A stretch of DNA of 64,000 nt. It comes from Escherichia phage ECO71P1. The stretch lies in sequence record OP172789, one strand, 5' to 3'. Shown piece by piece: positions 1-58,887 of this stretch. A model generated the notes under the pieces. The model worked only from the letters and a program-made list of their open reading frames with translations, had not been told where the DNA came from and made no database searches. The position numbers and the translations under genes were made by a program. The first letter of the stretch is position 1. Each line of letters begins with the position of its first letter.

Positions 1-97
1 GTATAAATATAAGTTTAGTATAAGTATGAGGATGTAGAAAAAATTAATTTAAATTAATTCAAAATGGAGTTAATTGTTTTTTCAAAGTTGTATAAAG

Positions 98-132
98 TAT
101 AGCGGCGACGCGTATCATCCGTATCATCCGTA
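98..132 (+). repeat. iteron block A: TATAGCGGCGACG followed by CGTATCATC CGTATCATC CGTA
   Basis: Tandem 9-bp unit read directly; 40/42 identical to 52178-52216. Confidence 0.8.
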
Positions 133-289
133 TGAGTGTACCATTGAACCCAGTCGCGGCGCACCATAGAAGTGTGTGGAGTGAACTACGGATAGGTCCA
201 AATCTTACGTCATTATACGCTTAAATTCTATGCGTAAGGTTAGCCAGCTAACTATATCTCCTTTTTAATTTCAAGCGGCAATCCCATAG

Positions 290-510
290 ACGGCGCAGCC
301 TACAGACCCACACACCACGGTACACGCCCCAAAACCTAGTTATTCCCTCTCCAATCCCACAGCACCACAGTACAATATTCTTCCAAATTCGCACACATAT
401 TCAAGACACACAAATCACGTCACAATCCTCACGCCAAACAAACCTCTAATAAATTTACACAAATCAATCGCTTTATCCGATAATAAAGACTCACAAACAA
501 CAAGCAAACA
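290..510 (+). other. G-depleted CA-rich non-coding tract
   Basis: About 220 nt with very few G on the plus strand; no ORF of 60 aa or more in any frame. Confidence 0.6.
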
Positions 511-530
511 AAAAGGGCCAATCGGCCCTC
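508..530 (-). terminator. rho-independent terminator (GGGCC GATT GGCCC plus T5 on minus strand)
   Basis: Hairpin 515-528 followed on the minus strand by UUUUU. Confidence 0.55.
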
Positions 531-546
531 TTAACATTAATCACTA

Positions 547-999
547 TTAAAATATAAAATTCTTCACTCCTAGCCTTTTAAATTCTTTCCTTAAAATTAT
601 ATTAAACTTCTTCAATTTAGTTTTATTCATCCTTAGCGGATTATAGGTGAACACCTTTTCTATTACTTCCTCGCTCATTTTTGAGCGCATATTAGTTGCG
701 TAATAGTTCTTGAACATATTAATAAGGTGATTGGATTCCAGCTTAAGCTCAATCACTTCTTCCGATTCATCAAGCTCAAGCAATCCTTTTTGCGTAAGAA
801 TATCTCTCAATATATTCTGACACTTCTTGCAATCACCTTTGCCTAAAAGCGAGTCGATATAATCGCCGCTGACGCGCTCATCACCGAAATACGTTGCGCG
901 ACCACAAAGGCTTTGCACTTCTCCTTCGTCAAAGTAATGCGCACGATGTCCCCACTTCGGTATGGCCCAACCAGCGGCGATAAGCCGTTTACCCATCAC
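547..999 (-). CDS. hypothetical protein (150 aa)
   Basis: Long ORF at the distal end of the minus-strand early block; hairpin plus T-tract follows on the minus strand at 508-530. Confidence 0.5.
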   Translation of the reverse strand: MMGKRLIAAGWAIPKWGHRAHYFDEGEVQSLCGRATYFGDERVSGDYIDSLLGKGDCKKCQNILRDILTQKGLLELDESEEVIELKLESNHLINMFKNYYATNMRSKMSEEVIEKVFTYNPLRMNKTKLKKFNIILRKEFKRLGVKNFIF

Positions 1000-3479: not shown

Positions 3480-3771
3480 AATATTTACCTCCAGCCATAT
3501 TCTCTTTAATTTCTTTTAATGCCGTGCGACCTGCTTTTGTCATCACCACGGATGAATAGCGCGTCGGGTCTTTCTCTCCTGGCACCGCCCAATCAACAAG
3601 GCCCAACCGGAATAAGACAGGGATTGATGGCGCATTGATGTCGTGGAAAAGTGATGGCCGCTTTTCATAAGCCTTCTTGCGGTCGCCGCGCAGCATGTAT
3701 GGCGTTCCATCTCCCATCCTGTACAATGTTTGAATTTGCGCTAGGCTTAGTCTCATTGTTGTCTTCTCCAA
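3463..3771 (-). CDS. hypothetical protein (102 aa)
   Basis: ORF track. Confidence 0.45.
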   Translation of the reverse strand: MEKTTMRLSLAQIQTLYRMGDGTPYMLRGDRKKAYEKRPSLFHDINAPSIPVLFRLGLVDWAVPGEKDPTRYSSVVMTKAGRTALKEIKENMAGGKYYDIKS

Positions 3772-3938
3772 ACTGCGTGTAATGTTTTCTGGTCGAACTT
3801 GGACAGCGTTTCACGCTCCGATGCTTTAAGGAATCGCGTGCCAAAGAACAGCATCCCTTGCGGCGTTTTAACGAGAGACACGCCTTTGTTACGGTAAAAG
3901 CTTACCAAGGCTGATGCGTTGTGGACTTCGGTAATCAT
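3753..3938 (-). CDS. hypothetical small protein (start moved to internal ATG after AAGGAG RBS)
   Basis: The annotated 3998 start lies inside a sigma70-like promoter; AAGGAG at 3947-3952 precedes ATG at 3938. Confidence 0.4.
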   Translation of the reverse strand: MITEVHNASALVSFYRNKGVSLVKTPQGMLFFGTRFLKASERETLSKFDQKTLHAVWRRQQ

Positions 3939-7770: not shown

Positions 7771-8418
7771 TTATCCTGTGGCCTGCATATTGCGTACATA
7801 CTTCTGCTCTAATGAATAGATGAAGTCGGCGACCGTCAATCCTTTGGTGTGCCACTCATACATTGTGTAGCCTGTATTCAGGAAATAGCCGCGCACCTTG
7901 TCCATTGCTTCAGATTCCTCCATGGAAGCCATCAGCGCGGCGACGTTATCATAAGAAGGCACAAATCCCTTCTTGCGTAGCGCATTGCGCAAATCTTTAG
8001 TTCTGAATCCAATCTTGCACAGGTCATCACGGCCCGTTGAAGATGCAACCTTCGGCAGCGCAAGGAACTCTTTGAGGAACATTGAGATGTTCAAGTCGCC
8101 TGCGTCATCAAGCTTCTGGAGTCGGTTGCGACCGCGACCCTTGAATTCACTCGCACGAGGGTGAGCACCAAAGCAGTGCGCCCCTTCCAGTTTTGGGTCG
8201 ATGATCATCAAATCTTTGCCTACGCGCAATTCAACATAGTAAAGGTATGTCTCATCGATAAGCTTCGTGCGCTTACAGTTGATGGAGTCCTTATCGTAAC
8301 CAAAACCACGCAACACGGTTGAAATCATCCGGTTCATTTCTTCTCCGTGAACGTCACTCTCTTTGTTCAGTTCACCAAGATGTTGAAAGAATTTAGCGAT
8401 GTTGATTGCTTTATTCAT
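7771..8418 (-). CDS. hypothetical protein (215 aa)
   Basis: ORF track; directly upstream of and overlapping the primase-helicase start. Confidence 0.5.
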   Translation of the reverse strand: MNKAINIAKFFQHLGELNKESDVHGEEMNRMISTVLRGFGYDKDSINCKRTKLIDETYLYYVELRVGKDLMIIDPKLEGAHCFGAHPRASEFKGRGRNRLQKLDDAGDLNISMFLKEFLALPKVASSTGRDDLCKIGFRTKDLRNALRKKGFVPSYDNVAALMASMEESEAMDKVRGYFLNTGYTMYEWHTKGLTVADFIYSLEQKYVRNMQATG

Positions 8419-10088
8419 CAGAATTCATCCTTATCTCTTCCTAAAGAACGTTTGCGTTCAATAACCTTCTTCAAGAATTCAATATCTTCAGGGTCAGATT
8501 CATCGCGGATAAGATACGCCAAAATAGTCATCAGGTCAGAAATGTATTCCCCTGCTTCATTCTTAATCAGCGGCGTAAAGTAACCACGCTGGTTGCGATA
8601 GGTTGCAGGCTCAAATCCAAGCTTCGACATGTGCGGCGCAAGGGTACGTGAGAAAGGCGACTTGCCGCACTTAGCTCTGAAGCCCATAGCGATTGCACCA
8701 CTAGTGATGTGCCAGCGTCCGCTGTGATGTCGGTCATAAGGCGCGGTGATGACGACTTCAACAAGGTCGTTGTCGACCATCTCGTCACGGATAACGCCGC
8801 GAGCACGTTCCATTTCGTTCTTGCTGAACTCAGTAAGCATGCGAGACGTTTCACCAACAAAAGCGTTGTAACCTGCTTCGCCGTGCTTCTCCATCCACGC
8901 AGCACACTCAGCCATCAACTGCCAAACATCTTCTTTCAAAGTGGAAAGGTCAGCTTGGAAGTCTTTCGACCAGTTCGGTTGCCCGTCCTTGTCTGCGAGT
9001 TGGCCAACAAAGATAGGATACACACGACGGTTGCCCGTATCGTCACGCTGCATGCCTGCGTATTCGTTGCCGTCCATGATAGCAATCCACTGGCGCGGTT
9101 TAACCTGCGTATCTTCAAATTTGAAGTCCAGGTCATCTTCCGTCTTAGTCAGGAATGCTTTCATGTTTTCGATGTCGGCCTTTTTAAAGCCTGTCATCTC
9201 GCCAACGTTCGCGATAATTGAGCGACCCGTAATAGCTCGCAAGAACGGGTTGAAGTTCTGCGCGGCCAAGTTCAACGGAATCGGTGTTGCGTGGCGGTCG
9301 TTCATAATAGCTTCGCAAAGCAGCTTACTGAAATAACTCTTCCCTGCGTTCTGGCCGCCGATGAGCGCAATGGAGATTGGCGCTTGACAGCCAGGGTTGG
9401 TCAGGCGGTTATAGAGCGATAGCCAAAAATACACACCGATTTGTCGGTTTAACTCTGTATCGAACGGTCGGAATAGCTCGATAAGGTATTTCTCAATGCG
9501 CGCAGTACCGTCCCATTCAGGCAGCTTCTTGTAGAAGAAGTCCATCAGGTCGTCGCGCTGATAACGCATGGCCCATTCCTTATAGGATTGAGCGACCTGA
9601 CGTGAGTTTGGGTTGGACAGGCCTGCTGCGTCGACAGCGGCAACTATCTCTGTGACTTCCAACGTCCGGTCGGTGAATGTTTCTCCGCGATGGTCGACTA
9701 AGCGTCCACGAAAAGTATCTTTGTGAGGGAATGGGACAATGCCGCTTCCCTTATCAAACAACGCGTCGAAAACCGCATAACGGTTCATGTCACTCGTCCG
9801 GTCCGCCTGAAGAACAAAATCATCTTTCGTCGGTTTGTAGTGAGGGAACTTGATTACCTGAAGTGAGGCGAGCAAACGTGCTCTTTCAACCAAGTCTTCT
9901 TCACCGTAGCACTCCATGCGCTCTGCATCTTTCTCAACAGCCTTATGCTGGAGGCTGATTTTAGCTCTGGTGCCTTGCTGCTCTGCCGCTTGCATCTCTT
10001 CTGAAACACCAGCGTCTTGAATTTCGTCAAAGGTTGCACCAAATTCATCACCTGTATCCTCTGGAAGATTGTCATGTTCAATTGACAT
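8418..10088 (-). CDS. DNA primase-helicase-like P-loop NTPase (VirE/D5 family-like)
   Basis: Walker A GGQNAGKS in the C-terminal half of a 556-aa protein; architecture typical of phage replicative primase-helicases. Confidence 0.7.
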   Translation of the reverse strand: MSIEHDNLPEDTGDEFGATFDEIQDAGVSEEMQAAEQQGTRAKISLQHKAVEKDAERMECYGEEDLVERARLLASLQVIKFPHYKPTKDDFVLQADRTSDMNRYAVFDALFDKGSGIVPFPHKDTFRGRLVDHRGETFTDRTLEVTEIVAAVDAAGLSNPNSRQVAQSYKEWAMRYQRDDLMDFFYKKLPEWDGTARIEKYLIELFRPFDTELNRQIGVYFWLSLYNRLTNPGCQAPISIALIGGQNAGKSYFSKLLCEAIMNDRHATPIPLNLAAQNFNPFLRAITGRSIIANVGEMTGFKKADIENMKAFLTKTEDDLDFKFEDTQVKPRQWIAIMDGNEYAGMQRDDTGNRRVYPIFVGQLADKDGQPNWSKDFQADLSTLKEDVWQLMAECAAWMEKHGEAGYNAFVGETSRMLTEFSKNEMERARGVIRDEMVDNDLVEVVITAPYDRHHSGRWHITSGAIAMGFRAKCGKSPFSRTLAPHMSKLGFEPATYRNQRGYFTPLIKNEAGEYISDLMTILAYLIRDESDPEDIEFLKKVIERKRSLGRDKDEF

Positions 10089-11397: not shown

Positions 11398-12480
11398 CTA
11401 TTTTATGCCACCTGCGCGACGATTTATCATATCAAGTTGATTCTCAATATAAGGCATTACTACTGCTTCGACAAAAGCGGTCCATCCTTTCTTGCCTTCC
11501 CCTTTCCGGTGACAGTCGTGAGCGCAACCGAAAACGAATTCATGTTCAGCGCCAGGGATTGGGCCGCGAAAATAAGCGCCGTATGGGTCGCCGTTGGTGT
11601 GCTCTTCACCCCAAGGACAGATGATGCGGCATTTACCTGACATGTTTTCAACCACATCGCCATCGGACCCTTCGCCCATCTTATTGCGCGCAAGGATTTG
11701 CTGGGCTATCTTATACCAAACAGCGTCATATTTGTATTCGTCAACGTCGATTTGAATTTCACGCTTTTGCGGCATAACGACGTGGAAACCGAAGGCTTGG
11801 CAAATCTCTTCGATTGTGTAGCGCAAAGAATAGTCTGCATGAACAAGTCGGCAGCGGAACGGGTCGCCGTTCTCATCGACATATTTATAGGGGCCGTCGT
11901 GAGTCACACGCTTATTGTTGATGCACCCAGGAACACGACCCACGCGTGTCACATCTTTAATCGTATTGTCGCCGCCCTTCTTGAGTACCATGTTTACGAA
12001 AGACCCAAGGAATGCTTTGAACTGAATAAGATGGTCAATCGGTTCTTTAAAGAAGTACCACAGCTGATGGTTGTTCGGTGAAGTCTCAACAATGACGGTG
12101 GGCTTCAGGCGCTCGAAAAAGAATTCCAAATCTAAATCGCCCTTTGACCCTTTACCGTGTCCGATGTCGTCGACCATCATCGCCATGCCATGACCGAAAG
12201 CCGATTCCGTGCGCCAGTATCGCATCTCGCCTGTCTTTGGGTTGGGAGACTTACGCATTGAACTTATGCAGGCGTAACCGTTCTGATGTTGCATCAGCGG
12301 CTTGCCAAGCTTCCAAGGCTTAGGCCAGAAGCTGCTGTTAATCTTTTTGCCGCGCTCGTCGGTCTGCACCGTTGCTTCAGGCGCAAACACTGTCATGACG
12401 CGTTCATCTTCTGGAATGCCTCTTTGGAGTTCCGTCAAAAACTCTTCGATTATTTTTGCTTCTTCTCTTAAACTAGCCAT
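11398..12480 (-). CDS. DNA primase-like protein (possible primase-polymerase type) with C-terminal Cys/His cluster
   Basis: 360-aa protein first in the minus-strand block, divergent from the replication block; VDDIGHGKGSKGD acidic motif and C...C...H...C...C.H cluster; assignment by motif resemblance only. Confidence 0.45.
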   Translation of the reverse strand: MASLREEAKIIEEFLTELQRGIPEDERVMTVFAPEATVQTDERGKKINSSFWPKPWKLGKPLMQHQNGYACISSMRKSPNPKTGEMRYWRTESAFGHGMAMMVDDIGHGKGSKGDLDLEFFFERLKPTVIVETSPNNHQLWYFFKEPIDHLIQFKAFLGSFVNMVLKKGGDNTIKDVTRVGRVPGCINNKRVTHDGPYKYVDENGDPFRCRLVHADYSLRYTIEEICQAFGFHVVMPQKREIQIDVDEYKYDAVWYKIAQQILARNKMGEGSDGDVVENMSGKCRIICPWGEEHTNGDPYGAYFRGPIPGAEHEFVFGCAHDCHRKGEGKKGWTAFVEAVVMPYIENQLDMINRRAGGIK

Positions 12481-12640: not shown

Positions 12641-12967
12641 ATGAACGAAAAAGATACGAAGCAACGAGAACGTGCAACACACGTCGGCATCGTTGAGTCC
12701 TTCCTTAATACAAGACTGAATTCAAGTCTTACAATTATGCGATTCCTGGGTCAACCAGACAGAATCAAATTCATCTTTGCCGCAAATCCGGTATCGCTTT
12801 ACATCCCTGTTGAATCCATGGCGTACCTGGTGCGCGACGAGCAAGGGTGGAAGATACCAAACACGACTGTTTTCTTCAGTCACGTTGACGGTGAGATGTT
12901 TGAACGAAAAGAAGATTGCCATTTTATTCCAGTATATCTGGACCTTGAAAGCGTAGTGGAGTTATAA
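12641..12967 (+). CDS. hypothetical protein (108 aa)
   Basis: ORF track; first gene of the plus-strand block after a divergent promoter region. Confidence 0.5.
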   Translation: MNEKDTKQRERATHVGIVESFLNTRLNSSLTIMRFLGQPDRIKFIFAANPVSLYIPVESMAYLVRDEQGWKIPNTTVFFSHVDGEMFERKEDCHFIPVYLDLESVVEL

Positions 12968-14151
12968 TGAACATTCCAGAATTTAATAATGAGCCAGTGA
13001 TTCAGTTCAACGCGCAACAGATTGATGCCATCGAAAAGGCCGTTGCATGGTACAAGCGATTGCAGGACGGTAAAACGACGAAGCGCGTGTTTTTCATCGC
13101 TGGCTATGCAGGAACAGGTAAAACCTCTATTGCGCGTGAGATTGTGCGCCGTTGTGTCGGTGAGTACGGTGCCATTTATATTGCGCCGACCGGAAAGGCA
13201 GCCAGCCGATTGAAGCAGAAAGGGTGTCGTGGCGCGAAGACACTTCACCAGTTCATCTATAACGTGCGCGGCGTAAATGACGACAATGAGCCAATATTTT
13301 CGAGAAAGTCAAAGCTGGACGAAAAGCCGCATCTTGTAGTCCTTGATGAAGCTTCAATGGTTGGCGAGTGGGATACAGAGCGCCTTCTTGATCACCGCAT
13401 CCCTGTGCTGGCATTAGGCGACATTGGACAAGTCCCTCCGGTAAAAGCCGCCGCCTACTTTACTGAAGATGCCGTTGACGTACTGTTAACCGAAATCATG
13501 CGGCAAGGGAAAGAGTCCAACATAATCCGCGCTTCCTTCTTCGTGCGACAGGGCAACCGACTTCCTCCGCGTGAATACGATGACGTCAAGGTGTTGGCTG
13601 AATCGCCGCGCGTTACCGCACTGAAGAAATTCATGGGCGAAGATGATCAGATTATTTGTTCATATAACAGCACCAAAGATAAATGGAATTCATTATTGCG
13701 GCAAGTGAGCGGACGTATAACGCCAATGCCAGGAATCGGTGAGAAAGTTATTTGCACATTCAACCAACACGGTCCAGGATTCTGTAATGGCGAGCAAGGG
13801 ATTGTTATTAGTTATGAGCCAGTACCGGACTTTGAAAGGGATGAAGATGAGTCCAATGAAATAATGTATGTAAATTTGCGCTCGCTTACCGATGGCAAAG
13901 ATATAAAGGTCAAGATAAATCCTCTTTCCTTCTCTACTGATCAGGAAGTGCGCAAAGAGGCTCAACGCGCTGTTGGAGGAATGGACTATGGCTATGTCAT
14001 AACGGTGCACAAATCGCAAGGCAGCGAGTGGGATAATGTGTGCGTTCTGGAAGAAATCTTGCGCGGCGTTCCGTATGCCAAGATGATGTACACAGCCATC
14101 ACCCGTGCTAAGAAGAATCTGACTGTGTACCGTGATTTGAAAGCGCGTTAA
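12967..14151 (+). CDS. SF1 DNA helicase, Dda/RecD-like
   Basis: Walker A GYAGTGKTS, motif II VLDEASMV, C-terminal SQGSEWD motif. Confidence 0.8.
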   Translation: MNIPEFNNEPVIQFNAQQIDAIEKAVAWYKRLQDGKTTKRVFFIAGYAGTGKTSIAREIVRRCVGEYGAIYIAPTGKAASRLKQKGCRGAKTLHQFIYNVRGVNDDNEPIFSRKSKLDEKPHLVVLDEASMVGEWDTERLLDHRIPVLALGDIGQVPPVKAAAYFTEDAVDVLLTEIMRQGKESNIIRASFFVRQGNRLPPREYDDVKVLAESPRVTALKKFMGEDDQIICSYNSTKDKWNSLLRQVSGRITPMPGIGEKVICTFNQHGPGFCNGEQGIVISYEPVPDFERDEDESNEIMYVNLRSLTDGKDIKVKINPLSFSTDQEVRKEAQRAVGGMDYGYVITVHKSQGSEWDNVCVLEEILRGVPYAKMMYTAITRAKKNLTVYRDLKAR

Positions 14152-20040: not shown

Positions 20041-20583
20041 GTGTTATTTCTTCCTTATGACTTCGAAACAACCGGATTAACCGTGCACCCGAAAGCGCCG
20101 CTTGGGATGCAGCCGCGCCCTATTGAATTTGCAGGCCTGTTGACGGACGGCAAAGAGATTCTTGAAACGTTCGAGTTCATAATCAACCCTGAAATCGTGA
20201 TTGAAGAAATCATCACAAAGATTACCGGATTAACAAATGAAGACCTTGAGTGCAATCCGCCATTCATCAATTTTGTTCCGCAGCTAAAAGAAATCTTCAA
20301 GAAGACTGATGCCACTATCGCGCACAACCATGCGTTCGATAAGAACATTCTTGATTATGCACTACAGCGCGAAGGACTTACACTTGATGATGTTAATTTC
20401 CCAGAAATAAACATCTGTACAGTTGAGCAAACCTTGCCTATTTTTGGCCGAAGAGTTAAGCTTCAAGAGCTGTATGAATTATATTTCGGAAAATATGAAC
20501 AGAAGCACCGTGCATTAGACGACGTAATATTACTGCACAAAGTCTGCCAACAAATTGGCGTATATGACATCTGGAGTAAATAA
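20041..20583 (+). CDS. DnaQ-like 3'-5' exonuclease (DEDDh proofreading subunit)
   Basis: Exo I DFETTG, Exo II HNHAFD, Exo III HRALDDV; AGGAGG RBS; GTG start. Confidence 0.8.
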   Translation: MLFLPYDFETTGLTVHPKAPLGMQPRPIEFAGLLTDGKEILETFEFIINPEIVIEEIITKITGLTNEDLECNPPFINFVPQLKEIFKKTDATIAHNHAFDKNILDYALQREGLTLDDVNFPEINICTVEQTLPIFGRRVKLQELYELYFGKYEQKHRALDDVILLHKVCQQIGVYDIWSK

Positions 20584-23480
20584 TGTTTCCACAATTGAGA
20601 GTTCGCAGCGGTTACACGTTCAAAGAAGTATATGGACGGCATCCTGAAATTATAGCACGGCTCAAAGAGTTGGGCTGCGAAGTCGCGGCATTAGTTGATA
20701 ACAATACATGGGGTCACGTTCGCTGGGAAAAGGAATGTCAGAAGAATGATATCAAGCCTATGTTCGGCATGGAAATTCCAATCATCGACCCTGATGCGGA
20801 CCCGAAAAAGGGATTCAAACCGAAGGCTTGGATATTGGCGCTTGACCTGAAATCTTTTTACAACGCTACGACACTTGCAACACAGCGCGGCGGACTGACC
20901 CGTGCAGAGTTCGGGGCGCTGGATGGCGTCGTTAAATTCTGTGGCGGGGCTGTGGAGTTGCTGCGACCAGAGGACTACGATTATATAGACGTCAACCCAT
21001 CATCGTTCCTTTTGGCCAAGCGCCAGGTATTGGCTCACCGCAACAACGGAAGGCCGCTGGTTTTAACCGGATACAACCACATGCCTTCACCTGAGCACGT
21101 TGACTTTGCTTATGCTTGGGAAGTGCGCGACACGGTCAAGCCGCACTGCATCGTTGACGCGGAAGACTTGTGCAAACAGCTTAAAGGAATCCTGACCGAA
21201 GATGAGTTGAATCAAGCAACGGCCAATGCGGTTGATATTGCAAACGGAATCGTTGGGCTTGGCCTGAAGCTGCGCAAGGCACCGATTATCCACCTTGCTG
21301 GTGACATGGTAAAGCTTGCTCGTGAGGGTATGGAGTACCGCCTTAAGGCAGGTCACATCAAAGAATGGACTCAGGAATACGAGGACCGATTCAACGAAGA
21401 GATTCACCAGATTCAGCTGAAAGACTTTGACTCATACTTTCTGGTGGTAGCGGACCTTGTACGATTCGCAAAAACAAAAATGCTTGTCGGACCCGCTCGC
21501 GGCTCATCGGCTGGTTCACTGGTTTGTTATTGCCTCGGCATCACGGAAGTTGACCCAATCCCGTATAAGCTGCTGTTCGCCCGATTCATCGACGTAAGCC
21601 GCGCCGACCTTCCTGATATTGATATTGACTTTGAGGATACCAAACGCTATATGGTGTTTGATTACCTTAAAGAAAAATACGGCGAAATGAACGTTGCAAA
21701 GCTTGGCAACATCAACACTCTTAAGGCCAACTCAGTAATGGCTCAGGTTGGTAAGAAATTCAACATTGGATATCACGAAACGGCCAACATTAAAAACGCA
21801 TTGCTTGAATACTCATCTGGTGACGCCCGTTATGGTCACGGCCTGGAGGATACCTTTGCAACAACTACCACGGGTCAAGAGTTTGTGGCGAAATATCCTG
21901 ACGCCGCGCGTTGCATGGGTGACCTTGAGATTCACCCGTCCCACACAGGTGTTCACGCAGCGGGAATCATCGTGTGTAATGATCCAATCTCTGATTACTG
22001 TACTGTAACGGCGGAAGGGATTGCGCAAATTGATAAGCCTGACAGCGAATACCTTAACCTTTTGAAGCTTGATGCATTGGGTCTTCGCACCCTCGGAATC
22101 ATTTCTGATACTGGCGTGATAGACGCTGAAACGCTGTACGGAATCAAGCTTGATGATCAAAGCGTCCTTGACATCCTTAACGAAAACAAGATGTCAGGAA
22201 TATTCCAGTTTGAAGGCGACGCTGTACGCTCAGTAACCAACTTTGTGCACGTTGATAACTTTAACAAAATCGATAACCTGACAGCACTTGGCAGACCTGG
22301 CCCGTTGTCATCCGGTATGGCCCAGAAATACATCGAACGCGCGGCAGGACGTGCGCCGATTGAGTACGACGTGCCGCAGCTTGAGCCGTACTTAAAAGAG
22401 ACTTACGGCGTGTTTCTTTACCAAGAGCAAATCATGGCCGTGGTTAAAGAGATTGGTTCATTCGACTGGGCGAAAACATCAGCTGTACGTAAGGCAATGT
22501 CAGGTCGTAAGGGTGAAGAATACTTTAACAAGCTTGGCGAAGACTTCGTTGCAGGCGCAATAAATAACGGCGTACCGGAAGCGGATGCAAGAAAGCTTTG
22601 GCAGGCGATGGCGACGTTCGGGTCATGGGGCTTTAACAAGTCACACTCCGTGTCATACGCGGTCGTGACTTACTGGACCTTGTGGCTTAAACGACACTAC
22701 CCGCTGGAATTTGCCGCTGCTTGCTTACGCGCTGCTAAGGACGAAGACCAGACGATTGCGATATTACGTGAACTTGCAAAGGAAGGCGTGGATTATGTGC
22801 CAATCGACCCTGATCACTCTTCAATGAACTGGACCATCGCTAACGGAAAGCTAATCGGCGGCATCATGAACGCTAAAGGGTACGGAATGGTAAAAGCGAT
22901 GAAGTACATCGAAGCACGTGAAGCCGGAACCTTAACGCAAAAACAAAAGGACGCATTGGCCAATGCTGAAGTCAAATACGGCGACCTTACAGAGATGCAC
23001 ACCAAGTTCGGTTGGGCGTATAATGACCCCTATCTGATTGGCGTTACTTCCGGTGCTTCAATACGCCAGATGAAGGAAGTCGGTGATGACGAGCGTGCAA
23101 TAGTGATCGGCAAGCTGACCAAGAAAGTGCTGGCTGACGAGAACGAAGCAACACGCATCCGTAAACGTCTTGAGCGCGGCATTTATACAAAGCACGGCAA
23201 ACTTAAAAAGGGTCTTCAAGCTGATGGTCGCTACGCAGAGTTTGACCAGTATGGAAACAAGCTTGAGACTCAGTTCATTGACCTTATGTGCAAGGACGAT
23301 TCGACCGACTCGCCAATGCGCTTCAGGATTCGCCCAGAGAAGTTCCAGAAATACGGTAAATACATTGCAGAGAACGTCGGGAACGGCGCATTCTTCCTGA
23401 TGAAAGGCCGCAAGCTTGAAGGTATTGACATGTTTATCGTCGACGTGATCAAACAGGTGTATCCAGATGGCAACAAATAA
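20583..23480 (+). CDS. dnaE: DNA polymerase III alpha (DnaE)-like replicative polymerase
   Basis: N-terminal PHP-like LRVRSGYTF and core motif GPARGSSAGSLVCYCLGITEVDPI; 965 aa. Confidence 0.85.
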   Translation: MFPQLRVRSGYTFKEVYGRHPEIIARLKELGCEVAALVDNNTWGHVRWEKECQKNDIKPMFGMEIPIIDPDADPKKGFKPKAWILALDLKSFYNATTLATQRGGLTRAEFGALDGVVKFCGGAVELLRPEDYDYIDVNPSSFLLAKRQVLAHRNNGRPLVLTGYNHMPSPEHVDFAYAWEVRDTVKPHCIVDAEDLCKQLKGILTEDELNQATANAVDIANGIVGLGLKLRKAPIIHLAGDMVKLAREGMEYRLKAGHIKEWTQEYEDRFNEEIHQIQLKDFDSYFLVVADLVRFAKTKMLVGPARGSSAGSLVCYCLGITEVDPIPYKLLFARFIDVSRADLPDIDIDFEDTKRYMVFDYLKEKYGEMNVAKLGNINTLKANSVMAQVGKKFNIGYHETANIKNALLEYSSGDARYGHGLEDTFATTTTGQEFVAKYPDAARCMGDLEIHPSHTGVHAAGIIVCNDPISDYCTVTAEGIAQIDKPDSEYLNLLKLDALGLRTLGIISDTGVIDAETLYGIKLDDQSVLDILNENKMSGIFQFEGDAVRSVTNFVHVDNFNKIDNLTALGRPGPLSSGMAQKYIERAAGRAPIEYDVPQLEPYLKETYGVFLYQEQIMAVVKEIGSFDWAKTSAVRKAMSGRKGEEYFNKLGEDFVAGAINNGVPEADARKLWQAMATFGSWGFNKSHSVSYAVVTYWTLWLKRHYPLEFAAACLRAAKDEDQTIAILRELAKEGVDYVPIDPDHSSMNWTIANGKLIGGIMNAKGYGMVKAMKYIEAREAGTLTQKQKDALANAEVKYGDLTEMHTKFGWAYNDPYLIGVTSGASIRQMKEVGDDERAIVIGKLTKKVLADENEATRIRKRLERGIYTKHGKLKKGLQADGRYAEFDQYGNKLETQFIDLMCKDDSTDSPMRFRIRPEKFQKYGKYIAENVGNGAFFLMKGRKLEGIDMFIVDVIKQVYPDGNK

Positions 23481-23889
23481 CCGTGAACAGAAATACATAT
23501 TCGTGCCTTTGAAGAAGCATTCAGAATCAATATTGAAGCTTCAACGAATCGAATCGATGACTGGTGATGGCGTGCCGGACGTAATCGGCACCAACCGGAA
23601 AGGTCGCGGCTTTTGGCTTGAAATGAAGTTCTTTGAATCGTGGCCTGCAAGGGCCAACACTGCACCTTTCAGAAATGCATTTGAGAAAGGTCAGTGCAGC
23701 TTTCTTTCTTCGTGGAATGATTGGAAATACCCATCATTTGTTTTGCTTAAAGTCGATTCTGAGAAGATGTTTTATTTAGTCCACCCTTCGATTGAATTAA
23801 AGCGTTATAATATTGCAGACGTTCAACGTGAGATAATCGTGAAGGGAACTATTCATCACATCATCAAGTATTTAGAGGAATTGTCATGA
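23467..23889 (+). CDS. VRR-NUC-like nuclease
   Basis: PDVIGT ... LEMK pattern; conserved pairing with the downstream SNF2 helicase. Confidence 0.5.
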   Translation: MATNNREQKYIFVPLKKHSESILKLQRIESMTGDGVPDVIGTNRKGRGFWLEMKFFESWPARANTAPFRNAFEKGQCSFLSSWNDWKYPSFVLLKVDSEKMFYLVHPSIELKRYNIADVQREIIVKGTIHHIIKYLEELS

Positions 23890-25409
23890 AAACACAAGGG
23901 ATGCGCCACCAGCTTCTGGCGCTTGATAAAGCAGGCCGCAGAAAATACTTTGCCTATTTCATGGAACAGGGTCTTGGTAAAACTTGGACCGCTTTGGCAG
24001 AGTTTGAAAAGCACTTCGCCGCTGGCGCGTTCGATGCCATGGTCGTCATCGCTCCAAACGGTGTCCACTCAAACTGGATTCGTCGTGAAGCACCAGAACA
24101 CCTTTCCATCAAGTGGATTGGGCACTACTGGCGCGGCAATGACAAGATGAAGACTAAAAAGGGCAAGGCGCTTTGGGAGAAGATGTTTGCTGATCACTAC
24201 CCTGAAGGCGAAGTGCCTGCGCGCATCTTCTCATTCAACATTGATACCGTCAACACACCAGTCGGTTATCAACACATAGAGTCGGTCTTGAAGAAATACC
24301 GCTGCCTGATGATCATCGACGAATCAACGCGCATCAAGAATAACACAGCCAAACGCTCCATCAAGGTTGTGGAATTGGGACGGCTGGCAAAGGCCCGTCG
24401 AATCCTTTCCGGTACGCCGTTGCCGCGCTCGCCTGCGGATATTTACATGCAATACCACTTCCTTGAAGCAGGATTGCTCGGCACCAAATCATTCCGTGCC
24501 TTTAACTCTGAATTCACGGTGCTACTTGAAGCGCACGACCCAGAGATGCAAGCCATCCTCAAGAAAATCGGCGGCAATGGCTATGGGATTCCGCAAGTGC
24601 CGCGCAAAGACCAGTTTGGCCGACCGATGTACAAGAACCTTGACAAGCTTATCCGGCTGATGGAACCGCACTATTTTCGTGCAACAAAAGCAGAATACTT
24701 GCCTGACCTTCCAGAGAAGGTGTATAAGTTTATCGACTTCGAGTTGTCGCCTAAACAACGCGATGTTTACGATGAACTCAAGAATGAGTACAACTATTTG
24801 ATGGAATACAAGGGCGAAGAAGAAAACGTCAAGTTTGAGATGATCGCATCGCGCACCAAGATGAAGCAGGTTACATCCGGCTTTGTCAAGGTGTATGATG
24901 AGATGGTCTACATGGAAGACAACCCACGCTTCACGGCCTTTAAGGATTATGTGGAAGGGGTGTTGGAAGACGACCCAGAGCGCAAATTCATCGTTTGGGC
25001 CATCTTTAAGGAAGAGATGAACCAGATTAAGGAATGGCTTGAGTCTGAAGGCGTGGTCACTGGTGTATACAACGGTGAAACATCAAAAGAGCAGCGCGAG
25101 TTCTTGATTGATGACTTCCAGAAAAACACAGTCGCGAATGGTGGAACACAGGTATTGGTTTGCCACGCTGCAGCGGCAGGCATCGGCATCACACTTACCG
25201 CCGCTGACTTGGCAATCTATTATTCTTGCAACTATGACAATGAGTTGCGCAAGCAATCCGAAGACCGAAATCACCGCATCGGCACCAAATCAAGCGTGTT
25301 GTATGTTGATTTTATTGGTGTTGATACCATCGACGAAGAAATTCAGCGTTCACTCAGTATGAAGTCAATGCTTGCTGATCACATCCTCGACGGCAAAAAG
25401 ATGAATTAA
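23886..25409 (+). CDS. SNF2-family (SF2) helicase/ATPase
   Basis: Motif I GLGKTWTA, motif II IIDESTRIKN, C-terminal helicase domain. Confidence 0.8.
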   Translation: MKTQGMRHQLLALDKAGRRKYFAYFMEQGLGKTWTALAEFEKHFAAGAFDAMVVIAPNGVHSNWIRREAPEHLSIKWIGHYWRGNDKMKTKKGKALWEKMFADHYPEGEVPARIFSFNIDTVNTPVGYQHIESVLKKYRCLMIIDESTRIKNNTAKRSIKVVELGRLAKARRILSGTPLPRSPADIYMQYHFLEAGLLGTKSFRAFNSEFTVLLEAHDPEMQAILKKIGGNGYGIPQVPRKDQFGRPMYKNLDKLIRLMEPHYFRATKAEYLPDLPEKVYKFIDFELSPKQRDVYDELKNEYNYLMEYKGEEENVKFEMIASRTKMKQVTSGFVKVYDEMVYMEDNPRFTAFKDYVEGVLEDDPERKFIVWAIFKEEMNQIKEWLESEGVVTGVYNGETSKEQREFLIDDFQKNTVANGGTQVLVCHAAAAGIGITLTAADLAIYYSCNYDNELRKQSEDRNHRIGTKSSVLYVDFIGVDTIDEEIQRSLSMKSMLADHILDGKKMN

Positions 25410-49848: not shown

Positions 49849-50487
49849 TTAACGAGTCAATTGTACAATGGTATAAGTGGAAGACTGGACGCTTGGGCCG
49901 GAAAGGGCAATAGTCGTCGGGTCAATCACAATACCGCCTGGGATGGCAACCATGCCAGTTGGCAATGAGCCAGTATAGGCGATAATTGCACCAATAGGCA
50001 AGTTGTTCGGGTTGTTACCGCTGGAAATGCCTTTAGGTACATAAGCAAGCAGGTCGCCATAGTTAAGCGTCTGCGGACTGGTGCTTGGGTTGAATACTTC
50101 AACTACGAGGCCCGTGCACATATCATAGAACTCGCCTTCGCTATATTGAGGCAGAACCATGCTGGCACCCAAAGGACCAGTAGAGTTGCCATACAGCGCG
50201 TAACGCTTGCTATTGCCGAGGATGCCGTAGTAGTTAGTGCCGCCCAGCTCAACTTCAAAGTCCTGCGCGCCCAAAGTTTTGGTTTGACCAGTACCCATTA
50301 AGGATACGTCAGTCTTAAAACCGAACACACGGCTGATGGCGTTTACGTTTGCGCCTTCGTTAGCGTTGGCAATTCGGCCTGGCTTCCCACGCTGTGGGCC
50401 GTCGCGAACGATGTCGCCAGGAAAGCCAGTTGTATATTGACGGCCTACACTAGTTTGGAAAGTCATGTTTATTCCCCTTTCAACCAA
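49849..50487 (-). CDS. head decoration/auxiliary capsid protein candidate
   Basis: Between scaffold-protease and major capsid genes. Confidence 0.4.
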   Translation of the reverse strand: MVERGINMTFQTSVGRQYTTGFPGDIVRDGPQRGKPGRIANANEGANVNAISRVFGFKTDVSLMGTGQTKTLGAQDFEVELGGTNYYGILGNSKRYALYGNSTGPLGASMVLPQYSEGEFYDMCTGLVVEVFNPSTSPQTLNYGDLLAYVPKGISSGNNPNNLPIGAIIAYTGSLPTGMVAIPGGIVIDPTTIALSGPSVQSSTYTIVQLTR

Positions 50488-51887
50488 GCTTCAAATGCTT
50501 CGTCAGTTGCTGCAGAATCCGCAGCGGCCTTTTGTTTTGCGACTACACGCTGTTTTTGACCGTGTTCAACGCCGCGCAGATAATTATCCACCACGTCAAA
50601 CTCAGCACCATCAACGCACTTCAAGCCTAACTTTTTAGCGCCATATTTCGCTACGGACTTGGAGTCCATAGTTGCATGATCAAAGGCACCAACAACTTTA
50701 GACAGGCGCTGGTAGAGGCTATTCTTACGAGCAGAATCAGCGTAGAAAGCAGCAACTGCTGAATCAGATGCCATTGAGTGTTCCCCTTTTGCTGGACCTG
50801 GCGACGCTTTCGCCGCTTTTGTCGGTTTGTCATCTTTTTCGACCGAAGCCCCCTTTACGTTGCTGTTTTGCAGGCCGCTAACCACATCTTCAGCTTTGTC
50901 GCAAGGTGATACATCTTCAGCCTTGACTTCAACTTCTTCGTCTTTGACTTCGGCTTCAACTTCTTCTTCATCACCTACCGCGCCACCTTTAAGTTTTGCA
51001 ATAAGTGCTTCGATTTGGCTGATCAGTTGCGGAAGCTCGCCGCCAGCGTGAGATTCAGTTTCAACTTCAAACTTCTCTTCACCTTCTGGAGTCTCTTCAG
51101 CTTCTGCTTTAACTTCTGGATCAACCATCACTTCTTCACGTTCTTCGGTTGAATCCTTCTCTTCTGCTTTCACTTCAACTTCGTCCTGATGAGCAGCTTC
51201 GGTGCTCTCTTCATTCAGAAATTGTTCGAGCGCAGGGATCAGTGATTTCAGCTGTTCAACAGCATTATCACGCGCTTTACCTTTTAACGGTTTTGGCATG
51301 TCTAAATCCTCGTTGGATGGTGTTACAGTCGTCAAACAAAGATGGTCAAAGCAACGACCATCCAGCACCCGTGCACCTGGTACTCGACCAACGTCCACGA
51401 GAGCAATGTGGTTGCCGCGAAGAGTTGTCTGTACCACTTCATACGGCTGCCCGTCAAACTCTCCAGACTGTATGATGAATTCACAGTCATAGCCCAAAGA
51501 CAAGTCAACCTTTCCAGAATCGATGGCCTTCTTCAGACGACGGCTAAAAACTTTAAGGTCGCCGCGCATCCATGGCTTGTCATAATAAACATTGCCAGTT
51601 AGAACGCCATCAACGCCATACTCTTCGGGTGCTGTGTTATCCTCATCACCTTCGAATCCAGAAAGCATTTCGTGATTGTCGATGAAAGGGATATTTTTGA
51701 ATGAATCTATCGCTTCGGGGTCTTTCACCGCTGACTCTGGGCGATAAACTTTTACGATGCGATTCGGATCACCATCAAGTCCAACCTGACCTGCAGAATA
51801 ATCAAAAATGCCAAATGACGAAATGGGACAACCCACAATCGTCAAGAATCCATTTTTGTCAATTTCGCGTGCCGTTTGCATTCGCAT
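50469..51887 (-). CDS. prohead protease-scaffold fusion protein candidate
   Basis: N-terminal ~200-aa globular domain followed by a long Glu/Lys-rich repetitive helical region (EVEVKAEEK ...) typical of scaffolds; immediately upstream of capsid genes. Confidence 0.55.
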   Translation of the reverse strand: MRMQTAREIDKNGFLTIVGCPISSFGIFDYSAGQVGLDGDPNRIVKVYRPESAVKDPEAIDSFKNIPFIDNHEMLSGFEGDEDNTAPEEYGVDGVLTGNVYYDKPWMRGDLKVFSRRLKKAIDSGKVDLSLGYDCEFIIQSGEFDGQPYEVVQTTLRGNHIALVDVGRVPGARVLDGRCFDHLCLTTVTPSNEDLDMPKPLKGKARDNAVEQLKSLIPALEQFLNEESTEAAHQDEVEVKAEEKDSTEEREEVMVDPEVKAEAEETPEGEEKFEVETESHAGGELPQLISQIEALIAKLKGGAVGDEEEVEAEVKDEEVEVKAEDVSPCDKAEDVVSGLQNSNVKGASVEKDDKPTKAAKASPGPAKGEHSMASDSAVAAFYADSARKNSLYQRLSKVVGAFDHATMDSKSVAKYGAKKLGLKCVDGAEFDVVDNYLRGVEHGQKQRVVAKQKAAADSAATDEAFEAWLKGE

Positions 51888-51994
51888 CCACCCTCAAATA
51901 AGTATTGTGTATTATATCTAATGAAAAAAACTTAGGCAAACAATAATTATGGTTTGAATATGTATAACAACCGATATAGCCGCGCCTTAATTAG

Positions 51995-52300
51995 TGTGAT
52001 ACGGATGATACGGATAAAATGAGGCGTATTTTTATCCGTATCGGTGTATAAGCCGCGCTATCACTGGTGTGCTACGGATGATACGGATGATACGGATACT
52101 TTTCATATATAAGAGTTTATAAAAAAATAAAATTAAATTAGATATATAATTTTAAATTAATTTATTTGAATTCCTATAAAGTATCGCGGCAACGCGTATC
52201 ATCCGTATCATCCGTAAGATTCTTTTGAAAACAACTACTTACTTGATACGGATGATACGTCATTATACGCGTAAAATCCTGCGGCAATCCATTGCCAGGC
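51995..52300. repeat. iteron region B: five clusters of the 9-bp unit CGTATCATC/GATGATACG in both orientations plus GCCGCG-containing boxes and an AT-rich tract
   Basis: Copies at 51998-52016 (inverted), 52033-52044, 52073-52100 (inverted, three units), 52195-52216 (direct), 52245-52261 (inverted). Confidence 0.8.
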
Positions 52301-52303
52301 GAT

Positions 52304-52441
52304 TCAGTGAATATTAAAAAGCACTCCAGCAACTAAAACGCCAATCAGCATCGAGTCGTAAACAGCCCATTTCCAAGAAAGCAAAGAGTTGCAATTAATA
52401 TTTCGCACTTTAACGTAACGTGACTGAATAATCTTTTGCAT
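52304..52441 (-). CDS. small membrane peptide (45 aa)
   Basis: AGAGGAAG RBS 8 nt upstream; C-terminal hydrophobic segment; abuts the iteron region; below the size cut-off of the ORF track. Confidence 0.35.
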   Translation of the reverse strand: MQKIIQSRYVKVRNINCNSLLSWKWAVYDSMLIGVLVAGVLFNIH

Positions 52442-57426: not shown

Positions 57427-58887
57427 TTAAAGGTTAGAGAAGAAGCCGGATGCTGCAACAATTGGTTTCATCAATGCCATGATTGCTGCGTCCGCTTTGT
57501 TAGGCGATTTGACTCCACGCTTTGCCATATCCTTTTTCGATTCAACTTTGAACTTGCCAAGTACAGACGTGTCTTTGCGCGGCGCTGACATTTCAAAAAG
57601 AAACGTCTCAATTTCTTCCGCAGACCAAGCAGGAATCCCAAGTTCTGGGATGCCGTCTGTGTCGATGGAAATCAACTCATCAGTCGGGTATACGGCCTGC
57701 CCTGTTGCATACTCATATGTCTTCCTGAATCGTTCGGCAATCTCAGTCCATTTTTGCGCTTTTATGTTTGCGAAATGGTCTTTATTGAGTATTTCAACGT
57801 GTGGTAACTCAAGGAAAACGTCATCAGGATCATCAACAGCACCTTGCGCGTTGAACGCATTAAATTCGATTCTTGGGAATGTTGGATTTTCATGGATTGC
57901 ATACTCATTGAGCTCATCAAATTTTGAACCAGCAAATGCACCAACACCGATTGCGTCATAGGTAATTGATGCGCCGAATGTCAATGCGTCTTTCCAAACT
58001 CCGCTTGCGGACTTAAGCAATTCATCTTCCAGACCTTCCCATGTCTTGATGCCGCGCAATACGTTGCCCGTGACAAATGCTGTGGCGTTTAAGTCGTCGC
58101 CGTCGTCCGCCACGTCAAAGCCTATACGGTTAGACCCTGACAAGCTCCATCCCAGCGTAGGGTGTTTGTGGAGGTTTAGCGCGGCCTTGACGAATGCACG
58201 GTTAATGACCGACTTGTCGCCGCCTGTCTTCGGTACTCCGCCATAAACGTGCTCTGCCTTTTTCGGGTCGCGCTCATACATGCCAGCAATAACGTCCAGC
58301 ATTGTTTGCGACAAGAATGGGTTGTCTTGCCAGTTGATCTTCTTAACGATGGCATTCTTCGGCGGTCGCATGACAAAGTTCTGGTAAACGAAATCGGCCT
58401 CTTCATCAGGGTTAAATATGATCCATATTTCGGACCCTTCCTTACGAATTGTCGGCTCAATAATGTCCCACTGCTCTTCAGTCAGTGCGTGCGCTTCCTC
58501 AAGCCAAAGAACATCAACGCCTTCGGTTGATTTGATTTCGTCAACGTTGCGTGCGATACCGTAAAATAAGAATTCAGATTTTGTTCTTTTATGCTCAATG
58601 GAGTTTTTTAATAAGTTGAACTCGTCTTTAAAATCAGAAATCTCTATCTTATCTTTTAATAGCGTATATACTGATTCAGAAATCTTGTTCTGGAATTGTC
58701 GAACGCAAAGGAATTTTAATTTAAAGTTTGCCGCCAAATAAATAGCAAAACCAGCGGCATCATGCGATTTGGAAGATGCACGACCGCCGTATATAACTTT
58801 GTATCGCGCTTTCGTCTTCCAGACTTCTCTTAAAGCAGGATTCAACTGGTACATGACTTTCCAATTATGTGTTAATATTTTATTCAT
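57427..58887 (-). CDS. terminase large subunit
   Basis: Walker A YGGRASSKS near the N-terminus; 486 aa; C-terminal nuclease-like acidic residues. Confidence 0.8.
   Translation of the reverse strand: MNKILTHNWKVMYQLNPALREVWKTKARYKVIYGGRASSKSHDAAGFAIYLAANFKLKFLCVRQFQNKISESVYTLLKDKIEISDFKDEFNLLKNSIEHKRTKSEFLFYGIARNVDEIKSTEGVDVLWLEEAHALTEEQWDIIEPTIRKEGSEIWIIFNPDEEADFVYQNFVMRPPKNAIVKKINWQDNPFLSQTMLDVIAGMYERDPKKAEHVYGGVPKTGGDKSVINRAFVKAALNLHKHPTLGWSLSGSNRIGFDVADDGDDLNATAFVTGNVLRGIKTWEGLEDELLKSASGVWKDALTFGASITYDAIGVGAFAGSKFDELNEYAIHENPTFPRIEFNAFNAQGAVDDPDDVFLELPHVEILNKDHFANIKAQKWTEIAERFRKTYEYATGQAVYPTDELISIDTDGIPELGIPAWSAEEIETFLFEMSAPRKDTSVLGKFKVESKKDMAKRGVKSPNKADAAIMALMKPIVAASGFFSNL

Follow-up and report, generated by a model that had tools for sequence, protein, structure and literature searches.

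What does a phage do with two diverged copies of one short, AT-rich repeat module? The question is raised by a 64,000-bp stretch of Escherichia phage ECO71P1 (sequence record OP172789), which was analysed as a whole and is called the window here. A first-pass annotation of this stretch had described the module at its left edge as a diverged second copy of an internal one and had proposed that the two were either two origins or paired regulatory sites. In the following, the internal module (~51978-52290) is termed the I-site and the terminus-associated module at the left edge of the window the T-site. With moderate confidence, and on the basis of sequence, structural models and analogy, we read both as putative replication origins of the SaPI/P4 type (SaPI, Staphylococcus aureus pathogenicity island), the T-site probably being also the place where the direct terminal repeat (DTR) begins. 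Of the two options first offered, that of two origins is favoured, and that of paired regulatory sites is less well supported.

The presence of a diverged second copy at the left edge was borne out by counts of the repeat, by shared boxes and by alignment of the flanks. Its building block is not the 22-bp iteron originally described; the 22-mer CGTATCATCCGTATCATCCGTA, shared by positions 111-132 and 52195-52216, corresponds to 2.4 tandem copies of a 9-bp unit, and such units stand in opposite orientations on both sides of an AT-rich core at both modules. The exact 9-mer CGTATCATC occurred eight times in the window (0.33 expected; none of 100 shuffles had more than 2), and all eight copies were confined to 111-128 and 52004-52259. 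For the core ATCCGTA, 12 of the 17 window copies lay inside the two sites. The modules also share TATAAAGTAT (at 91 and 52175) and ACGTCATTATACGC (at 207 and 52257), in each case as the sole exact copies in the window, as well as TTTAAATTAATT (at 48 and 52151, with no other plus-strand copies in the window) and GCGGCAATCC (at 275 and 52281, plus one exact minus-strand copy at 2317). After removal of the 22-bp core, local alignment gave a score of 42 for the upstream flanks, equalled by 4 of 1000 Markov resamples, and of 36 for the downstream flanks, equalled by none of 1000. Because the flank alignments outscored the resamples, the possibility raised in the first-pass annotation, that similarity outside the core might be due to chance only, did not materialise. 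The T-site and the I-site were ~74% alike, with several indels, in agreement with the earlier remark that the copies are too diverged for simple terminal redundancy. By nearest-neighbour free energy, calculated over 60, 80 and 100 bp, the AT cores of the I-site and the T-site were the first and second least stable duplexes of the window, respectively. The two modules comprise the following elements, those of the DTR being placed by homology with the relatives WFH and Mansfield:

Positions 1-65: last 65 bp of the DTR, forming the DTR-side half of the T-site AT core.
Positions 2-90: AT-rich core of the T-site, GC 15-18%, the second least stable duplex and a candidate DNA-unwinding element.
Positions 66-75, plus strand: GGAGTTAATT, the first unique bases beside the DTR boundary and a candidate cut-site determinant.
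Positions 91-110, plus strand: TATAAAGTAT box, then GCGGCGACG box, in common with 52175-52194.
Positions 111-132, plus strand: 2.4 tandem CGTATCATC units on the unique-sequence side of the T-site, kept across Wifcevirus while the flanks diverge.
Positions 187-220, minus strand: inverted units, with TACGGATA at 187-194 and a degenerate unit within ACGTCATTATACGC at 207-220, as at 52245-52270.
Positions 275-284, plus strand: GCGGCAATCC box, the end of the T-site module, with an exact copy at 52281.
Positions 51978-52099, minus strand: left arm of the I-site, with GCCGCG boxes at 51978-86 and 52050-58 and repeat units (two at 51998-52015 on the minus strand, one at 52034-42 on the plus strand and three in tandem at 52073-52099 on the minus strand).
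Positions 52100-52174: AT-rich core of the I-site, 75 bp, GC 5-9%, the least stable duplex of the window.
Positions 52175-52290, plus strand: right arm of the I-site, with TATAAAGTAT at 52175-84, CGCGGCAACG at 52185-94 and 2.4 units at 52195-52216 (plus strand), followed distally by ~30 bp, by two to three inverted units including ACGTCATTATACGC at 52245-52270 (minus strand), and by GCGGCAATCC at 52281-90.

Read from the AT core rightwards, the elements of the T-site (window 2-284) follow the same order as those of the I-site. In relatives, the T-site extends ~135 bp further left, with an inverted unit TACGGATAATACG (in WFH and other relatives TACGGAT(A/G)ATACG), a GCCGC box and two direct units, so the left copy is truncated by the edge of the window; counting the part that lies beyond it, as taken from the relatives, the T-site holds ~8 repeat units. 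The internal copy, previously given as 52128-52296, proved larger and carries ~9-11 units (CGTATCATC or its core ATCCGTA) in both orientations.

The phage belongs to the genus Wifcevirus: 28-29 phage records, including FEC19, WFH, WFC, ECML-117, Mansfield and Bas98-101, matched the first 3 kb and the region 51.6-52.7 kb at 90-99% identity. Wifceviruses are E. coli myoviruses of ~68 kb and distant kin of the Pseudomonas PB1-like phages (10.1101/2024.09.12.612763). Depending on the direction of measurement, the T-site and the I-site lie 52 kb or ~16 kb apart. The earlier picture of two copies 52 kb apart that flank most genes holds in the frame of the window; it fails on a concatemer or circular map, on which the sites are ~16 kb apart and the interval between them encloses the DTR, terS, terL and the portal gene.

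Within Wifcevirus, the non-coding DNA of the I-site was 98-100% identical, with ~92-95% in the adjoining genes; the T-site was more variable, yet its repeats were retained. In five wifceviruses the identity reached 100% over window 51880-52175, flanked by the protease and head-fibre genes at ~92-95%. The right arm of the I-site in Bas101 (aligned to 52195-52203) lacked exactly one 9-bp unit, which resembles tandem-repeat slippage and indicates that the number of units can vary. The opposed repeat sets also form a long imperfect inverted repeat at 52071-52218, with the potential to form a cruciform. All Rfam matches to the two regions were sub-threshold, and the weak ones to miRNA precursors among them are accounted for by this inverted repeat.

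The T-site also coincides with a chromosome end, a feature that had escaped the first reading: homology to WFH and Mansfield places the boundary of the terminal repeat within the left copy. WFH was deposited with both terminal repeats, given as "about 3.7 kb" (PMC6563267), and its DTR measured 3701 bp with 0 mismatches between the copies. On the plus strand, the WFH junction reads ...AATTAACTCC|ATTTTGAATT..., with unique sequence to the left of the bar and the DTR to the right, and base 1 of the record (equivalent to base 67583) aligned to window 65|66. The Mansfield record, which was opened at the DTR boundary predicted by PhageTerm, ended at window position 66. Given 95-96% identity to these relatives, we infer that the DTR boundary of ECO71P1 lies at 65|66, inside the T-site AT core. 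The adjacent GGAGTTAATT was invariant in eight aligned wifceviruses, while its surroundings varied, and it falls within a ~16-19-bp stretch of the T-site that the I-site lacks. A comparable position was found in Pantoea phage Kyle (MN038177, 73,168 bp), in which we detected a 3603-bp terminal repeat; its left boundary lies within the AT core of the Kyle T-site, between sets of repeats whose sequence is not that of Wifcevirus. The other DTR boundary (WFH 3701|3702), ~280 bp past the right end of the window, carried none of these repeats. On its unique side (WFH 3702-3840) a different direct repeat, GTGTACTGCAAATTT, was present in two copies, and on its DTR side there were AATGATTCG-type repeats; both could be signals for the second cut. 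No genome end has been reported at the I-site.

A candidate reader of the repeats and a possible partner are encoded on the minus strand:

Positions 8418-10088, minus strand: rep, encoding a 556-aa VapE-like superfamily 3 (SF3) self-loading helicase (PF05272, E 1.6e-28).
Positions 11398-12480, minus strand: gene for a 360-aa RepB'-type primase (PF16793, E 1.6e-36), the candidate partner of Rep.

Rep matched SaPI1 Rep1 in sequence (PDB 7PDS, E 4e-11), and its AlphaFold model (pLDDT 88, pTM 0.81) retrieved 7PDS chains as the best PDB matches in Foldseek, at nearly full length (E 1e-16, ~479 aligned columns). In residues 436-504 the secondary-structure elements follow the order helix-strand-helix-helix-strand-strand, like those of a winged helix; this call draws on that order and on the match over the full length rather than on a separate search with the domain. 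The C-terminal winged helix of Rep is presumably the most likely reader of the repeats. Three further replication-type genes lie on the plus strand, for a Pol III alpha-like polymerase (20583-23480), a Dda/PIF1-like superfamily 1 (SF1) helicase (12967-14151) and a SNF2-family translocase (23886-25409). The Pbunavirus homologue of Rep was independently proposed as the likely initiator in a 2025 paper on the pbunavirus Banzai, in which no origin site is named (PMC12390725); the same paper places origins by GC skew alone, elsewhere in the genome (PMC12390725).

Both sites were also found in Pantoea, Pseudomonas and Burkholderia relatives and in viral contigs of IMG/VR (metagenomic), and the sequence of the repeat differs by lineage and is common to both sites of a genome. 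Pantoea phage PA1 (Kylevirus) has a syntenic I-site of the same layout with the 9-mer AACCGTTAT, and a second AACCGTTAT cluster 17.6 kb away. In Pseudomonas phage PaGU11 (Pbunavirus) the repeat is TGGTAATT(TGG); of its two homologous modules, one lies upstream of the protease gene and the other starts ~250 bp after the helicase gene gp73. In a Burkholderia phage the I-site repeat is TTAGTTAC. The primase was 64-70% identical in PA1 and PaGU11. For the IMG/VR contigs, rep and protease loci were paired by contig name (16 contig pairs), and 8-mers repeated in the I-site were sought in the rep locus of the same genome. They clustered there in 10 of ~13 lineages, with 11-40 matches per best 400-bp window, compared with 1-9 in the unrelated-lineage control; about nine different repeat sequences are represented among the lineages. 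In most relatives tested the T-site lay just after rep, most clearly in seven contigs from five lineages (including Pbunavirus and BcepF1), where it started 110-420 bp past the rep stop codon, so the adjacency to rep is probably ancestral.

Across genera the winged-helix block was the most divergent part of Rep, and between Kyle and PA1, which belong to one genus and have different repeats, the ATPase domain was 80-92% identical and the winged-helix block 18%. The small terminase subunit, TerS, was 60% identical between the same two phages, with the divergence spread evenly along the protein. One element stayed constant: all lineages examined had a GCGGCA(A) box, in opposite orientation left and right of the AT core. 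A conserved protein may read this box; the primase is 64-70% identical across genera. In the window the boxes of this type are at the following places:

Positions 102-110 and 275-284: GCGGCA-type boxes of the T-site.
Positions 51978-86, 52050-58, 52185-94 and 52281-90: GCGGCA-type boxes of the I-site.

A hairpin of the ssiA/ssiB type at the GCGGC boxes, sought by eye, amounted to a 3-4-bp CGCG-GCAA-CGCG stem that was not conserved in PA1, and was dropped. Separately, positions 290-480, between the T-site and the early-operon terminator (511-532), form a G-poor, C/A-rich tract with a GC skew of -0.56 to -0.75. In PaGU11 the T-site lies between a C/A-rich tract and a mirror tract rich in G/T (~57750-57940 and ~58350-58650 of the PaGU11 record), and Kyle has a tract too. 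A Rho-utilisation-like or leader function for the tract at 290-480 is speculative.

In the origin model, a single DNA-binding protein, encoded by the phage and specific to its lineage, would bind the repeat arrays of both modules. Rep would load itself at the AT core after melting it, and the RepB'-type primase and the Pol III alpha-like polymerase would then begin synthesis. The I-site origin would lie upstream of the head-protease operon and the T-site origin between the early/replication genes and terS. Both sites could act as origins, or one of them could be an auxiliary site comparable to crr of P4. The concatemer would be cut or nicked within the T-site AT core at 65|66, beside the T-specific GGAGTTAATT. 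The layout of the modules, their conservation, the joint variation of the repeats at the two sites, the homology and fold of Rep and the place of the DTR boundary in the relatives are observed; that Rep rather than TerS reads the repeats, and that either site fires, we infer.

The closest analogy is with the satellite islands. In SaPI origins, 6-12 short iterons are divided equally between the two sides of an AT-rich centre, at least two per side and with opposed orientations; the C-terminal winged helix of Rep, a self-loading helicase, recognises these iterons, which lie just after rep (PMC9371898). The phage modules resemble those of SaPIs and of phage-inducible chromosomal islands (PICIs) in their opposed short repeats around an AT core, in the SF3 Rep with a winged helix, in the separate primase gene, in a number of units within the range of 6-12 (~9-11 in the I-site, ~8 in the T-site), and in the order pri-rep-ori in most relatives of this phage. 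In SaPIs, moreover, the specificity of the Rep winged helix varies with the repeats; here both vary, and TerS diverges too. The phage differs in its 9-bp unit (5-6 bp in the islands) and in having two copies per genome. In Wifcevirus the site is ~8 kb from rep, and one copy holds the terminal-repeat boundary and abuts terS. The carrier, furthermore, is a 68-kb virulent myovirus and not a satellite, and its primase is of the RepB' type.

Two distant sites with the same short repeats have precedents. In P4, ori and crr carry type I iterons bound by the alpha primase-helicase; 4.5 kb separates the two, and firing is known from ori alone. In the Bacillus phage SPP1, oriL and oriR are G38P-bound sites beside AT-rich DNA. 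Our modules share with both systems the arrangement of two distant cis sites with common short repeats, but the proteins here are not G38P homologues, and neither system is known to have a site at a chromosome end. Origins of the RSF1010/IncQ oriV type combine iterons and an AT-rich region with ssiA/ssiB sites primed by RepB'. The likeness lies in the RepB'-family primase, in the repeats beside an AT-rich segment and in the inverted GCGGCA boxes, which recall paired ssi sites; unlike RSF1010, the phage has neither a RepC-type initiator nor 20-bp iterons. An iteron origin of the plasmid/lambda type, with ~19-22-bp iterons and DnaA boxes, was considered and rejected: the unit is 9 bp in tandem, and no DnaA or IHF sites lie in or near the modules. 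DnaA boxes (TTWTNCACA), the IHF core sequence and GATC were all absent from window 1-600 and from 51850-52350 (212 GATC window-wide); a self-loading helicase would not be expected to have DnaA or IHF sites in any case.

Several observations weigh against the origin model. In this window the rep stop codon is ~8.1 kb from the T-site and ~42 kb from the I-site. The constraint on the I-site (100% over ~300 bp) exceeds what repeats and AT-richness need and suggests further functions. Four IMG/VR lineages showed no sharing of exact 8-mers between the I-site and the rep locus; these may lack a T-site, have it at a distance of over 10 kb from rep, or carry repeats too degenerate for such matching. 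The linkage of the T-site to terS is as tight as that to rep, and in genomes in which the two genes have become separated (by ~8 kb in Wifcevirus and 5.8 kb in Kyle), the T-site has stayed beside terS. Lastly, the physical cut lies between repeat sets, and the repeats could therefore be recognition boxes of the terminase. GC and AT skew followed gene orientation and marked no origin, which is neutral either way.

The last two points lead to the best-surviving rival, in which the repeats are TerS/TerL recognition boxes, the T-site is a pac- or cos-like site and the I-site is a second, auxiliary or regulatory terminase site in the head-gene cluster. The first gene past the DTR boundary (WFH_00001, outside the window) was identified as a homologue of E217 TerS (PDB 7UXE, E 1.6e-32) and was 39% identical to PaGU11 gp74; the T-site lies ~200 bp upstream of it. 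Pfam recognised nothing among the WFH DTR genes, and TerS was recognised solely through PDB 7UXE. Its placement agrees with E217, in which terS is reported to be ~58 kb from terL (PMC9611059). From these positions in the relatives, the ancestral gene order was probably pri, rep, T-site, terS. A terminase role would also fit the DTR boundary between repeat sets in both Wifcevirus and Kyle, and the divergence of TerS between lineages (the 60% identity of Kyle and PA1).

Terminase recognition sites with repeats flanking the cut are known from SPP1 pacL-pacC-pacR, P1 pac and lambda cosB. The T-site resembles them in that it lies beside terS and that repeated boxes enclose an AT-rich cut point; it differs in the existence of a second, fuller copy without a known end and in the product, which is a fixed 3.7-kb DTR where the other systems yield headful or cohesive ends. 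The I-site is, in addition, near neither terS nor terL, holds more units than the T-site and has no reported genome end, and within the head operon a further pac site would have no obvious role. Pbunaviruses keep both modules although the latest reports describe them as circularly permuted headful packagers (their termini are disputed). The sharply localised divergence is that of the Rep winged helix, that of TerS being even, and for E217 TerS the in vitro binding of DNA is reported not to have been appreciable (PMC9611059). The invariant GGAGTTAATT is specific to the T-site, so the cut signal looks like an add-on to a shared module. On balance, it is unlikely that the repeats serve the terminase alone.

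Origin and end could also be joined. If the firing of a T-site origin were mechanically coupled to the formation of the chromosome end, a Rep-loaded replisome at the DTR boundary would duplicate the 3.7-kb repeat, and the terminase would then cut or nick the melted AT core; the I-site would serve as a general origin or as a Rep-bound partner site. We consider such coupling doubtful.

It is less probable still that the modules serve transcriptional control, with a phage regulator acting at them as operators or activator sites on promoters of the late head/tail operon, in the case of the I-site, and of the DTR/terS genes, in that of the T-site. The relevant features are:

Positions 51911-51939, minus strand: sigma-70-like promoter (TTGCCT, 17-nt spacer, TATAAT), a consensus match between the I-site and the protease gene.
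Positions 50469-51887, minus strand: head-protease gene, with the I-site upstream of its operon.

The I-site thus lies directly upstream of a long minus-strand structural operon, beside this promoter, and both modules contain TATA-like boxes (TATAAAGTAT and, on the minus strand, GCGTATAATGACGT). Its near-100% conservation suggests dense regulatory content, and the pbunavirus 14-1 has some non-sigma-70 promoters, for which a phage factor may be needed (PMC10914365). Promoter-like matches were, however, no commoner than in shuffled sequence: scans for sigma-70 promoters and terminators gave no excess over shuffled sequence, save for the terminator at 511-532 and the promoter-like match at 51939-51911. 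Elsewhere in the window, no intergenic or promoter region carried the boxes of the modules, and control of transcription leaves unexplained why opposed repeats surround the two most meltable segments and why the site follows rep in most lineages. Origins often overlap promoters, and the two readings are compatible. A candidate phage RNA polymerase at 60301-62616 (plus strand, 771 aa) turned out to be a tail fibre with a C-terminal Peptidase_S74 chaperone domain.

Incidental similarity (chance, low-complexity AT-rich DNA, an assembly artefact or a decaying copy of terminal redundancy) has practically no prospect of being right and is effectively excluded by the comparative data: AT-richness does inflate the alignment scores of both regions and the left copy does touch a real terminal repeat, but the repeat counts are far above the shuffled expectation, the flank alignments are significant, at least four genera have both copies in synteny, every genus with a repeat of its own, and true DTR copies are 100% identical, as against ~74% for the T-site and an I-site that is internal and not a chromosome end.

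Phages of the PB1-like group (Pbunavirus, Wifcevirus, Kylevirus and relatives) rank among those most used in therapy. In the literature searched, these repeats or origins are not described for Wifcevirus or Pbunavirus, and origins and packaging signals are undefined. The two modules supply candidates that can be tested: origins, a packaging cut site and a Rep recognition code, for which about nine natural variants of the repeat exist together with variants of the winged helix; these would be useful for engineering and rebooting PB1-like genomes. They also bear on how long direct terminal repeats are made, a poorly understood process, and may relate to the very fast replication reported for wifceviruses. 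The unusual part is the link, in two genera with different repeats, between the DTR boundary and an origin-like unwinding element. If the coupling of origin firing and end formation were true, the initiation of replication and the formation of the terminal repeat would share one cis element across a family of myoviruses.

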